A stretch of DNA of 64,000 nucleotides, taken from the NCBI GenBank assembly GCA_000165345.1, contig CM000431.1, positions 224,001 to 288,000 of the forward strand, read 5' to 3'. Shown in pieces: positions 1 through 15,000 of this stretch. Each line of letters opens with the position of its first letter. Within the stretch, counting starts at the first letter, position 1. The position numbers were made by a program.

Positions 1-3000
1 ATCTTTAAGCAGTTTGGACGTGGATTCCCAACTGGAGGATATGAATCTACGTCAAATTCTAAAGATAATAATGGTTTTTATCATCCAAATCTCGATACTA
101 GTACCCAAGAATACACTCCTTTGATTCCTTATGGTCAAAATGCTCCTTTCTTACCGGTTGGAGTTCCTGTTACTGATGATCAGGGTTTGGTAGTTCCTCC
201 TGGTTTCTACTTTAATAAAACAACAAGCCAATATGAGCCTTTGGGATCAGCTGAGGATTCCAATTCTTTAAGACCACCAGTTCCTTTCCAACTTGTACAA
301 GGAATTGAGGAGTGTGAATTGGAGATTTATTCCTTCTGTAACTCCACAAAAGTTACAATGGAGTCTTTAATGACTAATTTGGATAAGAAAGATTGGACAT
401 TATTTGCAATGGTTTCAACTGGAATTCCAACTTATACTCCAGATTCAAGCCCTAACTTTAATTTTCAATTTAAATTCAAAGATAAACAGGATCAGATCAA
501 ATTTTCTATAGACATTTCAAACTCTTCTATTGTTATTTCAGGTTCAGATTCATCCCAAATTGCTGAAGCTGTGTCTCCACAATGTGGTCCTTATTGTTCA
601 ACTTATCCAAAAGGATACTTCACATTTTGGTTACAAAAGAAGTTCAGTGAAAACAAGTTTGTTGTTGGAGTGAACTACAATAATCTTTTATTGGTGGAAT
701 TTGATTCAGATAATAGAGATTTTACTAAGATAGATACTGGTGGAGACCCTGGAGCCACTCTTTCTCCTTCTAAAACTTACGTTTTATGGAATCTCTTAGA
801 TATCTCAAATCCACCAAAACAAAGTGCTACAACAACTACTACGAAGACCCCTTGGGATCAAGATATTAAGGATGAGTGCCATTTGGAACTTGACCAACCT
901 TGTAGAGGAAATGATTCAATTCTGGATAAACCTCTTAATCAAGGAGATATTGTTTGGATCAATACTTTATTAGGGAAATCTGATCAACCAATAGAAGTAG
1001 ATGGAAAAAATTATTGGTTTGAATATAAGTTCCAAAAAGAGTCAGATTCTGTGATTTCTTTACTTTTCAATGAAACCTCTGTTGCTATTTACTTTTATGA
1101 TAGAGCTGAGACTTTATCATCTAAGTATACTAATCAACATTTATTATATGAAGGAATGGATATTACACTTGGTATTACATCAAATAGATTTGGCTTCTTC
1201 TTGGTTAACAAAGATCTTAATGCATTAATTCATGATCCAAGCTTGAAGATTTTGGATTATAATAAGATTCTACAAGAAAGTGTTCCTAATCATATTTCTA
1301 ACTTCTTACTCGAGGAAGGATTCACTTATCCCAAAAACATCTTATTTAGAGGATATGAAACTTGTACTTTATATGGGGATTGTAAAACAGTTTCTAAATC
1401 GTGTGAGTCTCAAGTTTTAATAGAAATGTGTAATCCAATTCAAGCAGGAACTGAGATCTCAATTCAAACAAGTATTTCACAAACTAATATTAATAATGGA
1501 ACTTGGGGAGCTCCTTTAATTCAAAGTGATCTAATTAACATTTTCCATATTGGAAATGAAGATAAGGATGTATATACAGTTTATATATATACAAATAGAA
1601 TGGTGTTGGAGGATATGGTTAACTTTATTTCTTGTGGAGGACCATATCCTGGTGGTAAAACTTTGAGTTCAAGTTCAAACTTGGAATGGTCAATAGCATT
1701 GGATTCAAAGAAGTTCCTATATTTAAATGTTTTAGATGAGGAAAATACTGAAATGAAAACAATTTGTTCTATGTCATTAATTGGAGGTATTCATTCTTTA
1801 GATTATATTTCACCAAGTGGTTTTAAACCAAATAATTCAGTATTTACTCAAAAGATAAACTCATTCAAACAAGGAGGTTATAAGTCTACTTCTGATGTTA
1901 ATTTGGGATATTACTTTCCAATATATGACAATTCCAAAAATGAGTTTTTTCCTGATCTTGTTTATGGTGATAGTTTCCCTTTTTATCCTCCTGGGGTTCA
2001 TCCTGCTCCGATAGTTGGAGATCAATTAAATACTCCTCCAAATTATCATTATAATACAACAACTGGTCAATTTGAGAAGAATGAAGATCATTCAGATCCT
2101 GATGAAATTAATCCATTCCAACCAAATCATATTGTGAATGGTATTTCAGAATGTAATCTTGACTTATTTACAACATGTAATGCTTCATCCATAAAGATTA
2201 TGCCAGAAGATATAACCTTTAAAGAGTTTTGGACTTTATTTGTAATTTCAAGTACAGGAATTCCAAACAAAGGTTCTGAATCAGATCCATCCAATTATAA
2301 ATACGAGTTTATGAAGACTGATACTGGAGTAGAGGAATTAGTCTTAAGTTTAACTATTTCCAATGAAACTGTTATTTTGAAGAATGAAAAGACAAATGAA
2401 GAAGAAGTAGTAGGATCACCACAATGTGGTCCATATTGCTCAACTTATCCAAAAGGTTACTTTGCTTTCTGGTTAACTTTAGATTCAATTAATAAAAAGT
2501 ATATAGTTTCTATTGAAAATAATTCAAAGAAATTGGTAGAAATTAATTCAGAAGGAGCAGATTTTAATCAAGTTAAACCATGCAAATCTTGTCAAGGAAC
2601 TCCCGATTCTGAAATGTATAGTATTTGGAAATTGTTTAATTCAAAGATTCAACCAACAGAAGTTGCTACTACTACTACTACTACTACTAAGACTCCTTGG
2701 CAGGATCAAATTATAGAGAATTGTATTGTTTCATATGATTCTGATCCTTGTAAAGGAACTAATGTAGAAATTGATCCTGAATTACAAGAAGGAGATATTC
2801 TATGGATCAATACAACTTTACAGATTTCTGATCCAAAAGTTGAAATAAATGGGAAATCATATTGGCAAGGAATTCAATTAAAGAAAGATGATAAGAAAGT
2901 CTTTTCTATACTATTTGATGAATTATTTATATCTATAAATATTGAAGATTCTGGTAATGAATACTTTTCACCATATACAAACCAGACTTTAGGTTATTCT

Positions 3001-12000: not shown

Positions 12001-15000
12001 CCTTATTGTTCAACTTATCCAAAAGGTTATTTTGCTTTCTGGTTAACTTATGATTCGATTACAAATAAGTACATTATTTCAGTTGAGAATAATACCAAGA
12101 AATTAGTAGAAATTGAGGCTGATATTACTAGTGATTCAGTATTTAATAAGATTATCCCAGTAATAGACACTAATGGAGGAGCAGGAGTTGACATTTCAAA
12201 GACTTTCAGTATTTGGCAATTGACAAATATTAAAGAAATTCCAATTGATACCGCTACTACCACTACTACAACAACAACAACAACAACTTCTACAACAACA
12301 ACAACAACAACAACAACAACAACAACTACTACTACTACTACTACTACTACAAGTACAACTTCCACAACAACAGAAAGACCATGGTATGAAATAGAATTGG
12401 ATGAATGTCCTTTAGAATTAAATAAACCATGTAGAGGAATTAATGGAAAATTAGATAAACCGTTTAATCATGGTAATTTATTATGGATTAATGGAACTTT
12501 AGGAAAAGATATTAATGGGAGATTATTATTAGATGATACAAATTTGATGGGATATGATATAATGAATGATAATAAAAAAATCATGACTTTATTATTAAAT
12601 GAAACATTTATTGGAGTTTATGATTTAACAAAAGATCAAGAATATTATTCATATTATACAAATGAAAGTTTAGCATATAATGGTATGGACTTTAAGATAG
12701 GAATAGGATGGAGTAAATTAGGATTATTTATTTTGAATGAATATTCAAGTAGTTTAATAGAAATTCAAACACATTCAGATTATAAATTTAATAAAGTATT
12801 ATTAAGAGGACCAACAATGGATAAATATGTGAATTATATATTATTAGATAATTTCTTATATCCAAATGGAATATTATATTTAGGATATGATACATGTACA
12901 TTTAATGGAGAATGTAATGTAAAATCTTTAGAATGTAGTTCTCAAGTATTAGAAGGATTATGTTTAAAAAAGTTACCAGGAATTACTTGGAAAATGGAGA
13001 CTATTTTAGCACAAACAAATGTAAATAATGGAACTTGGGGATTCGATTATTCTATTAATGGTTTAATAAATTTATATACATTAAATAATGGAATAGAGGA
13101 TGTATTGGTAATTTATTTCTTTAATAATAGAGTAGCTTTACAAGATTTAATAAATTCAAATTCTTGTTCTGGTCCTTATCCTGAGAATTCTCAAGTCAAT
13201 GTTGGTGATTTAATCAAATGGTCAATAGGAATAGATTCTTTAATGAATTTATATTTAAATATATTAGATGATAATGTAACAGGAAAGAATTATACTGTTT
13301 GTTATATAAAGAATTTGAATCAATTTGGTGGTGGATTTAAATATTTATCTCCATTAGGTTATAGACCAAATTATTCAAGATTTATTCAAGAAATATCACC
13401 AAAATTCCAAGATGGTGGTTATGAATCAACATCTAAACCTGATAATGGTTATTATTTCCCAGAAAAAGATGTAAATACTGGACAATATAATCCTGATGAT
13501 AAATATGGTGAAAATAGTTATCCATTTTTCCCACCAGGAGTTCAACCAGCTCCAATTGATGGAGATGAGAATAATACACCTCCAAATTATCATTATAATA
13601 CAACAACTGGCCAATTTGAGAAGAATGAAGATCATCCAAATCCTGATGAAATTAATCCATTCCAACCAAATCATATTGTTGATGGTATTTCAGAATGTGA
13701 TCTTTACTTATTCTCAACTTGTAATGCAACATCTACTAAATTTATGCCAGATGGTACTATATTTAAACAAGGTTGGACATTATTTGTAATGATTAATACA
13801 GGAGTTCCAGATTATGATCCAAATAATGTAAATAATAATTATAATTATAGATATGAATTTATTAGTAGTACTAATAGTAATACTGGTGGTGGTACATTAT
13901 CAGATAAATTAATATTATCATTGGAATATAATAATGAAACAGTTACATTTAGGAATGAAATAACAGGTGAGGAAGATGTTGTAGGTTCTCCACAATGTGG
14001 TCCATACTGTTCAACTTATCCAAAAGGTTATTTTGCTTTTTGGTTAACTTATGATTCAAAATATAATTACTTTATTATATCAGTCAATAGTAATAATGAT
14101 TATTTAACATCAATTTCAGCTGATAATACTGATATGATTTTTAATAAGATTATTCCAAGAGGAAATAACGTTAATAATAGTTATAATATTTGGCATTTAA
14201 ATAGTCAGAATAGGTTGCCTGTTTCAATAGCTACTACTACTACTACCACAACGACTACTACAACTACGACGACGACTACTACGACAACAACGACAACTAC
14301 TACCACTACTACTACCACTACAACAACGACTACTACTACTACTACTACCACAACTAGTACTACTACCACTACTACAACTACTACCAGCACTACTACGACG
14401 ACGACTACTACGACAACAACGACAACTACTACCACTACGACTACTACAACTACCACCACAACAACTACTACGACAACTACTACTACCACAACCACTACTA
14501 CGACAACGACAACAACCACCACAACAACAACAACTACTACTACTACCACTACAACTACAACAACTACAACAACTACAACCACTACGACTACCACTACTAC
14601 AACAACTACTACTACCACCACTACTACGACAACGACAACAACCACCACTACAACAACAACTACTACTACAACCACCACTACTACAACAACAACTACTACC
14701 ACTACTACTACAACAACAACTACTACTACTACTACTACTACGACAACAACAACTACCACTACTACCACAACAACAACAACAACAACTACTACTACCACTA
14801 CTACTACTACAACCACCACAACAACTACTACGACAACAACAACTACCACCACTACTACAACCACAACCACTACGACTACTACAACCACCACAACTACTAC
14901 AACCACTACTACTACTACCACAACAACAACTACTACTACTACAACTACGACGACGACTACCACTACAACTACTACAACTACTACAACTACGACAACGACA

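Follow-up and report, generated by a model that had tools for sequence, protein, structure and literature searches.

Does a tandem array whose units share almost unbroken stretches of sequence consist of recent duplicates, or of old copies of which one part has been kept alike? The question is raised by a stretch of Cryptosporidium parvum chromosome 3 (64,000 nucleotides (nt), positions 224,001 to 288,000 of the forward strand of contig CM000431.1, assembly GCA_000165345.1; hereafter the window), at the left end of which a tandem array makes up the 3' 9,718 codons of a single giant gene, cgd3_720. A preliminary description of this DNA had reported near-identical units in the 5' part of the array and a gradient of divergence toward its 3' end, which it put down to recent duplication or gene conversion. 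We find that the near-identity is a property of one part of the unit, and consider it highly probable that it stems from intragenic gene conversion limited to one domain of an old tandem array, and not from recent duplication of units.

The array was phased at the PW that follows each threonine (Thr) linker, which gives units of ~640 amino acids (aa; ~1.9 kb). The window contains a partial unit U00 (1-849), 13 full units U01-U13 (starting at 850, 2695, 4603, 6544, 8449, 10363, 12379, 15319, 17368, 19246, 21166, 23023 and 25027) and a degenerate terminal unit, U14; the units that had been numbered 3-8 are U02-U07 here. Because a period of 1.9 kb is outside the range of Tandem Repeats Finder (longest period 500), that program returns no report of it. 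Within the unit we distinguish an N-module, consisting of domains 1-2 (~1.03 kb), from a C-module, consisting of a Pro-rich leader, domain 3 and the Thr linker (~0.9 kb). Linkers of 5 to 360 residues are found behind every unit. As had been described, the distal units keep the order of motifs and the last one has fewer cysteines (7 in U14 vs 12-14 in the other units).

The recurring segment of ~75 nt on which the preliminary description drew is readily recovered, its coordinates being good to ~5 nt: a 74-nt segment occurs in six plus-strand copies (at 3859, 5773, 7705, 9622, 11563 and 13546, with 2, 0, 2, 1, 2 and 3 mismatches, respectively, so that the copy at 5773 is the sole exact one), all in one reading frame and spaced 1914-1983 nt apart, and shuffled sequences contained zero copies. 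The near-identity around these copies does not extend to whole units, which are 59-73% identical at the nucleotide level when codon-aligned. Instead, it is found in the last ~0.9 kb of the unit (e.g. 5629-6480 in U03), where U02-U07 have a mean identity of 79-94% and maxima of 97-99% in 150-nt windows; over the first ~1 kb, the mean for the same units in such windows is 52-64%, no higher than among distal units.

Pairwise comparison of the modules gives the same division, with N-modules at 49-61% nucleotide identity in all 78 pairs and C-modules ranging from 93% down to 53%. C-modules of U02, U03, U04 and U06 are 88-93% identical to one another; those of U05 and U07 are 75-82% identical to these four and to each other; and values fall to 69-74% for U01 and U08 (70-72% for U01), 62-70% for U09 and U10, and 53-64% for U11-U13. 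The gradient that had been described toward the 3' end is therefore real as far as distal units are more diverged, but it is confined to the C-module, reaches its maximum around U03-U06, midway along the gene, and declines both ways, the C-module of U00 having only 36% aa identity to that of U04. It is also not monotonic, as it is interrupted by an 83-nt tract in U10 that is identical to U04, U07 and U08, while U09 in between is diverged. Nor does the homogenised block lie at the 5' end of the array, as had been proposed: identity falls in the 5' direction through U01 and U00, and the open reading frame (ORF) extends upstream of the window, the C. hominis orthologue having ~1,978 further codons 5' of the window start (C. 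hominis L001 1-5595).

The two modules also differ at silent sites. All N-module pairs have saturated Nei-Gojobori proportions of synonymous differences (pS) of 0.43-0.68, while the C-modules of U02, U03, U04 and U06 have a pS of 0.12-0.24 and a corresponding nonsynonymous proportion (pN) of 0.06-0.10. Codon identity was further scored over only those codons that encode the same amino acid in both units, for which gene-wide codon usage predicts a same-codon rate of 0.57. The observed rate is 0.77-0.93 for the C-modules of U02-U06, 0.52-0.78 for N-modules and 0.54-0.69 for distal C-modules. Given this excess and the low pS, silent sites in the C-module are homogenised beyond what protein constraint, which cannot reach them, and codon bias account for.

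The homogenised sequence is a mosaic. The 5' part of the C-module (5629-5930 in U03) is common to U03, U05 and U06, and its 3' part is common to U02, U03, U04 and U06. Pair-specific tracts range from 83 to 707 nt and differ in their end points; among them are a 707-nt tract with 33 differences between U04 and U06 (7705-8411 vs 11563-12269), a 209-nt tract with 2 differences between U04 and U07 (7677-7885 vs 13518-13726) and a 148-nt tract with 1 difference between U07 and U08 (see Table 1 for others). In some units, the shared tract extends past the end of the linker (TSTTSTTTEQ/R) to cover ~60 nt of the N-module that follows. In five pairs, the longest runs of concordant polymorphic sites exceed those under site permutation (global P <= 0.003), and by the four-gamete test 57% of informative site pairs are incompatible.

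The age of the units can be judged from related species. An exhaustive profile search of 1.84 billion representatives returned 10 proteins, all Cryptosporidium by their source names and covering C. hominis, C. canis, C. muris/andersoni and C. bovis, and a word-indexed protein search returned three Cryptosporidium fragments only; there is therefore no outside relative with which to root the family. Compared with C. canis, the N-modules of U01-U06 are 63-74% identical at the aa level to their positional partners vs 29-50% to other units, and orthologous pairs have 69-70% identity at the DNA level vs at most 55% to other units. By unit, aa identity to the C. canis orthologue is 63% for U02 (31-38% to other units), 70% for U03, 70% for U04 (71% by global alignment; 69% nt), 73% for U05 (74% in a second alignment; 70% nt) and 68% for U06 (29-40% to other units). 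The C. canis Cc10N row of this comparison was disregarded, P0009 being frame-shifted in its C-terminal half. From this one-to-one positional orthology it follows that U01-U06 are older than the split between the two species and have been neither duplicated nor replaced since.

C-modules follow species instead. Their aa identity is 57-64% between species, with no rise for positional partners, vs 77-87% within C. canis and 79-89% within C. parvum. Similarly, the nucleotide sequence of the C-tail (SPQCG to linker) is 87% identical between Cc03 and Cc04 and 94% between Cp03 and Cp04, but 66-67% between orthologous pairs. The contrast between modules recurs independently within C. canis, where DNA identity is 82-91% for C-modules and 47-56% for N-modules, and same-codon rates are 0.83-0.89 and 0.39-0.51, respectively. 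All C. canis cores read NSTTSQFEPN..ELNPFRPTHIVDGNSIC..SARIMPEN (also given, for every copy, as NSTTSQFEPN...ELNPFRPTHIVDGNSICDLYLFSTCNATSARIMPEN), and those of C. parvum U01-U08 read NTTTGQFEK..DEINPFQP.HIV.GISEC, with an LYLFSTCN..SAKIMPED stretch that is common to C. parvum U02-U06 and U08 and differs in U01 and U07. As read from these sequences, C-modules that group by species and N-modules that group by position are the defining signature of concerted evolution, here in one module only. The C-module of U09 keeps its positional orthology in both species (63% aa identity vs 41-47% to other units), which therefore places U09 outside the converting set. In U10, the core (20440-20510) keeps NSTTSQFE, the state of all C. 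canis units, directly 5' of the 83-nt tract, and may be an ancestral remnant beside a conversion patch. The guanine-cytosine (GC) content of the gene is 49% in the C. canis orthologue vs ~30% in C. parvum, a very large shift between orthologous coding sequences, and the contrast between modules inside C. canis persists in spite of it.

Comparison with the much closer C. hominis indicates that the process is recent. Its contigs align colinearly with the window over U00-U06, with 96-98% identity, and mismatches cluster in C-modules, at 21 per 200 nt in U02 and 19 in U03 vs 1-8 elsewhere. At more than ten aligned columns, U02 and U03 of C. hominis share one state (QFENDEGNTNSDLENPSRP) that is found in none of ten C. 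parvum units; U05 of C. hominis retains C. parvum-like sequence. Variants have therefore passed from unit to unit after the divergence of these two very close species.

Gene conversion would account for these observations as follows. In an old tandem array of ~640-aa units, each comprising three predicted beta-sandwich domains and a Thr-rich linker, a central block (U02-U07, with a weaker reach to U01, U08 and U10) would have been overwritten repeatedly by non-reciprocal recombination between units. The overwritten stretch would take in the third domain, its Pro-rich leader, the end of the linker and ~60 nt at the start of the following unit, in tracts of ~80 to ~700 nt with variable end points. 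Conversion of this kind would hold the C-module at 88-93% DNA identity, silent sites included, and let new variants spread between units within a species. Domains 1-2 stay out of it, having diverged to ~55% nucleotide identity and remaining stable positional orthologues between species. We infer that conversion persists where a strongly constrained core (PAPIDGDENNTPP.YHYNTTTGQFEK...INPFQP..IVDGISEC) keeps enough identity to seed recombination, and that it may halt where divergence of the N-module blocks heteroduplex extension, or where selection keeps N-modules distinct.

Several points weigh against this explanation. The data hold no direct evidence that tells gene conversion from a double unequal crossover, and the reason offered for the sparing of N-modules goes beyond what was observed. 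A statistic of the pairwise homoplasy index (PHI) type is marginal (P = 0.034), and the permutation test has no model of rate variation along the module. The GC shift in C. canis lowers DNA identity between species, although the protein comparison gives the same pattern. Lastly, the sequences compared from C. hominis and C. canis come from short-read assemblies that visibly break or collapse in this gene, so that some variants shared between their units could be consensus artefacts.

Among other explanations, unequal crossing-over with gain and loss of units, in place of copy-number-neutral conversion, fares best, yet we regard it as unlikely. It would make unit number highly polymorphic, and two observations agree with it: short-read population data flag cgd3_720 as dense in insertions/deletions (indels) and single-nucleotide polymorphisms (SNPs), according to the retrieved passages of PMC9317183 and PMC4407392, and unit number has changed over deep time, since the orthologue of C. 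muris, at 3,523 aa, contains only ~2 canonical units. However, the order of N-modules U01-U06 is kept in C. canis, U00-U06 are colinear in C. hominis, and an apparent deletion of two units in C. canis is accounted for by a separate contig (see below). The only indels between C. parvum and C. hominis that alter the length of the gene, of 12 and 3 nt, fall in the Thr linker at 6469-6511; four further indel events are 1-nt pairs that compensate one another within the cores of U02 and U03. The unit order shared with C. canis (U01-U06 and U09) argues indirectly, as does that shared with C. hominis, against rapid turnover of units. The preliminary description had expected copy number to vary between isolates; it is more likely that length polymorphism sits in the runs of Thr codons than in unit number, and the published indel density may reflect the Thr linkers.

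The orthologues of the gastric species, C. muris CMU_037990 (P0013) and that of C. andersoni (P0007), have the same N- and C-terminal regions around their ~2 canonical Thr-linked units. With ~14 units in C. parvum, this implies a roughly seven-fold expansion in the intestinal lineage of C. parvum, C. hominis and C. canis.

Strong purifying selection on the C-module, combined with codon bias in an AT-rich genome, could in principle produce similarity with no recombination at all. The core motif and SPQCGPYCSTY are indeed conserved in all units and species, and codon usage by itself already predicts a same-codon rate of 0.57. Selection is nevertheless a very improbable explanation, because the rate in the central C-modules exceeds both this expectation and that of distal C-modules, and because it leaves unexplained the species-specific residues in all paralogous copies as well as the pair-specific mosaic tracts.

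The homogenised tracts are places where other assemblies break or collapse, and short-read assemblies do fail here, as had been anticipated. The C. hominis contigs JTAI01000026 and JTAI01000027 end at window positions 7694 and 11552, in both cases 11 nt short of a copy of the 74-nt segment, and the latter starts within a Thr linker. In the C. canis assembly GCA_027243965.1, contig 119 passes from the U03 N-module through a C-module to a U05-type tail and then U06; the missing piece (U03 tail, U04 and U05) is present in the same assembly as a separate 3,447-nt contig that ends in C-modules, and this explains the apparent two-unit deletion. That the window itself contains such an artefact, with reads of different units merged into false near-identity, is hardly credible, as each of its copies has flanks of its own and is distinguished by scattered copy-specific sites, the C. 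hominis contigs reproduce unit-specific sequence, and the contrast between N- and C-modules is found independently in C. canis. A scenario in which entire units were recently duplicated in tandem at one array end, leaving older copies distally, would fit the drop in C-module identity with distance from U03-U06 and the regular spacing of the repeated segment, but this part of the earlier interpretation has almost nothing left to recommend it, since the N-modules of the same units are saturated at silent sites (pS 0.5-0.6), U01-U06 predate the split from C. canis and C-modules resemble one another much more closely inside a species than across the two.

Gene models at the locus are affected as well. 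In the C. hominis 3' gene model P0006 (UKH1 / TU502_2012), compared with window 24900-27000, the Thr linkers of U12 and U13 are gone together with adjacent residues (...IQPCC|NSVHNEC...), probably as an artefact of annotation (spliced out as introns) or assembly. In C. canis, the orthologue fragment on contig JAPCXA010000119 begins inside the U01 C-module, and directly upstream of it positions 1-9931 are taken up by unrelated gene calls, one of which (2,283 aa) runs in the opposite direction; this suggests that the contig contains a chimeric join. Several public Cryptosporidium assemblies present cgd3_720 in broken, collapsed or wrongly modelled form, which makes orthology tables and gene counts unreliable for this gene. 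Likewise, the SNP and indel hot spots reported for the gene from short-read mapping coincide with non-uniquely mappable reads and with real conversion between units, and such variant calls need masking or long-read re-checking before they are read as diversifying selection or virulence variation.

The assignment of the array to cgd3_720 rests on three points of agreement with the published gene. Its longest pure Thr run, of 308 aa, matches the annotation; the window codons and the upstream C. hominis codons together give a protein of ~11,700 aa, and the retrieved part of PMC3305300 describes cgd3_720 as a "very large probable mucin" of 11,700 aa; and the CDPK1 gene at the right end of the window is identical over aligned residues to PDB constructs of C. 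parvum CDPK1, one of which is named cgd3_920. The neighbours also correspond, with an alpha/beta hydrolase downstream. The reading frame leaves the window at its left edge and closes with a stop codon at 29155-29157. A TTG at 121 that could be taken as the start of the giant ORF was rejected as a window-edge artefact, because the 40 codons ahead of it belong to the same frame and have repeat-unit sequence. The upstream part in C. hominis consists of a signal-peptide-like start followed by more degenerate N-module-type domains that have no Thr linkers.

Table 1. Positions of repeat modules, homogenised tracts and neighbouring genes in the window.
Feature	Position	Strand	Remarks
cgd3_720, 3' part ("very large probable mucin")	1-29157	+	frame open from base 1
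U02 N-module (predicted beta-sandwich domains 1-2), not homogenised	2695-3729	+	pS 0.46-0.59; 49-61% nt to all other N-modules
U02 C-module and Thr linker, homogenised	3730-4602	+	88% nt to U03, U04, U06; 74-nt segment 3859-3932; tracts 3856-4149, 4033-4149 (0 mismatches), 4208-4418
U03 N-module	4603-5634	+	unhomogenised beyond first ~60 nt
U03 C-module and Thr linker, homogenised	5635-6543	+	93% nt to U06, 90% to U04; exact 74-nt copy 5773-5846; tracts 5629-6087 with U06, 5647-5927 with U05, 6122-6339 with U04
U04 N-module, not homogenised	6544-7578	+	<=55% nt to other units
U04 C-module and Thr linker, homogenised	7579-8448	+	74-nt segment 7705-7778
U05 N-module, not homogenised	8449-9483	+	
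U05 C-module and Thr linker	9484-10362	+	5' half homogenised with U03, U06 (tracts 9496-9831 with U06, 9496-9776 with U03); tail (PCCG type) unit-specific, orthologous to C. canis U05-type tail
U06 N-module, not homogenised	10363-11424	+	
U06 C-module and Thr linker, most strongly homogenised copy	11425-12378	+	74-nt segment 11563-11636
U07 C-module, core alone homogenised	13414-14232	+	whole module 75-78% identity; 74-nt segment 13546-13619; tracts 13518-13726 with U04 (2 differences), 13583-13730 with U08 (1 difference)
Giant Thr linker	14233-15312	+	360 codons (358 Thr, 2 Ser; ACT, ACA, ACC and ACG used for Thr); includes 308-Thr run
Homogenised core tract in U08 C-module	16679-16832	+	148 nt/1 difference vs U07; 144 nt/2 differences vs U04
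Distal units U09-U13	17368-26988	+	domain order kept; C-modules unhomogenised (53-70% identity) except U10 patch
83-nt tract in U10 C-module	20506-20588	+	identical to U04, U07, U08; probable isolated conversion patch past diverged U09
U14 (7 Cys, no C-module) and non-repeat C-terminal region	26989-29157	+	conserved in C. hominis P0006, C. muris P0013
Alpha/beta hydrolase	30389-31648		cgd3_730 by neighbourhood
Ulp1-type protease	37918-39036		
RNase P/MRP p29	42722-43534		
SWIB-domain protein	50806-52119	-	
CDPK1 (cgd3_920)	61974-63590		

Two N-modules carry low-complexity insertions, a poly-Asn run in U08 (~16350-16400; NNNNNNNNNNKNN) and an internal Thr/Ile-rich stretch in U12 (~23200-23300; PISTTTTTTTTITTNTITN). 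Two minus-strand ORFs of 369-371 aa at 14205-15339 were discarded as by-products of the ACN repeat in the Thr run. The terminal region of the gene (26989-29157) matches no Pfam family. The window as a whole is AT-rich (~30% GC), and the genes downstream of the array (30389-63590) are ordinary housekeeping-type ORFs; Pfam gave no match for the long ORFs at 31929-32984 (minus strand), 40787-42397 and 43695-46655 (minus strand).

Structure prediction models the unit, with moderate confidence (predicted local distance difference test (pLDDT) score of 74), as three galectin/LG-like beta-sandwich domains followed by the Thr linker, and the predicted structure has a jelly-roll beta-sandwich fold. A prediction for the C-module alone scored a pLDDT of 53 and was kept out of the fold search. 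The modelled unit resembles the galectin or concanavalin-A-like lectin (LG/LNS) fold, a resemblance that stops short of membership of the galectins: tandem galectins, LG/LNS arrays (neurexin, laminin alpha LG1-5) and the galectin-like domain of Toxoplasma M2AP are alike in fold only, at 7-16% identity in structural alignments, and the whole unit matches no Pfam family at E <= 0.01. The protein is of mucin type in that it is predicted to be secreted and has long Ser/Thr-rich stretches, with putative O-glycosylation; the orthologues of C. hominis, C. canis and C. muris have a signal-peptide-like N-terminus, as judged by eye from sequence that corresponds to DNA outside the window. By extrapolation from three domains per unit, each chain might carry ~50 lectin-like beads.

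The available expression data are drawn from excerpts of published work. Expression of cgd3_720 is given as undetectable until 48 h in vitro in the retrieved part of PMC3305300. In the portions of the supplementary tables of Tandel et al., 2019 that were retrieved, the gene has values of ~2-5 in the first sample columns and ~9-10 in later ones, which by our own reading, made from excerpts that lack the column labels, are female samples, and it is listed beside oocyst wall protein 6. An excerpt of one further paper reports over-expression in oocysts/sporozoites. The protein would plausibly be a secreted chain of beads with mucin spacers, made in the sexual stage as a component of a coat, wall or matrix. 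Our literature search found nothing specific on gene conversion, long-read treatment or oocyst-wall localisation of cgd3_720, and the retrieved passages that mention the gene contain no ~640-aa three-domain unit, galectin/LG-like fold or domain-limited concerted evolution.

Concerted evolution of intragenic repeats is well known in surface and secreted proteins, including the fungal FLO/ALS adhesins, streptococcal alpha-C/Rib proteins and the variable-number tandem repeats of vertebrate mucins. As in those systems, DNA-level recombination in cgd3_720 would keep copies alike and spread variants within a lineage, and short reads fail. Unlike them, cgd3_720 has a 1.9-kb unit of which about one third is homogenised, with the remainder in stable positional orthology between species and the order of those units that could be compared conserved between C. 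parvum and C. canis. The gene was already known, and the phenomenon is a further instance of concerted evolution, clean but unsurprising; what is less common is how sharply converted domains are set off from unconverted ones within a single unit.

A bolder interpretation, which we offer as a speculation with more against it than for it, is that cgd3_720 represents a Cryptosporidium-only class of giant "lectin-bead" mucins with ~50 galectin/LG-like domains, in which selection would keep one domain of each triplet uniform and the other two as a fixed series of distinct binding modules, so that domain-limited conversion would be a mechanism maintained for this division of labour and not a passive consequence of sequence identity. 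If so, the uniform domain might, for instance, interact with a shared partner or mediate cross-linking or polymerisation within the coat of the female gamete or oocyst. More generally, the predicted architecture of the unit, three lectin-like domains and a mucin linker, may provide a starting point for work on a sexual-stage protein of unassigned role.

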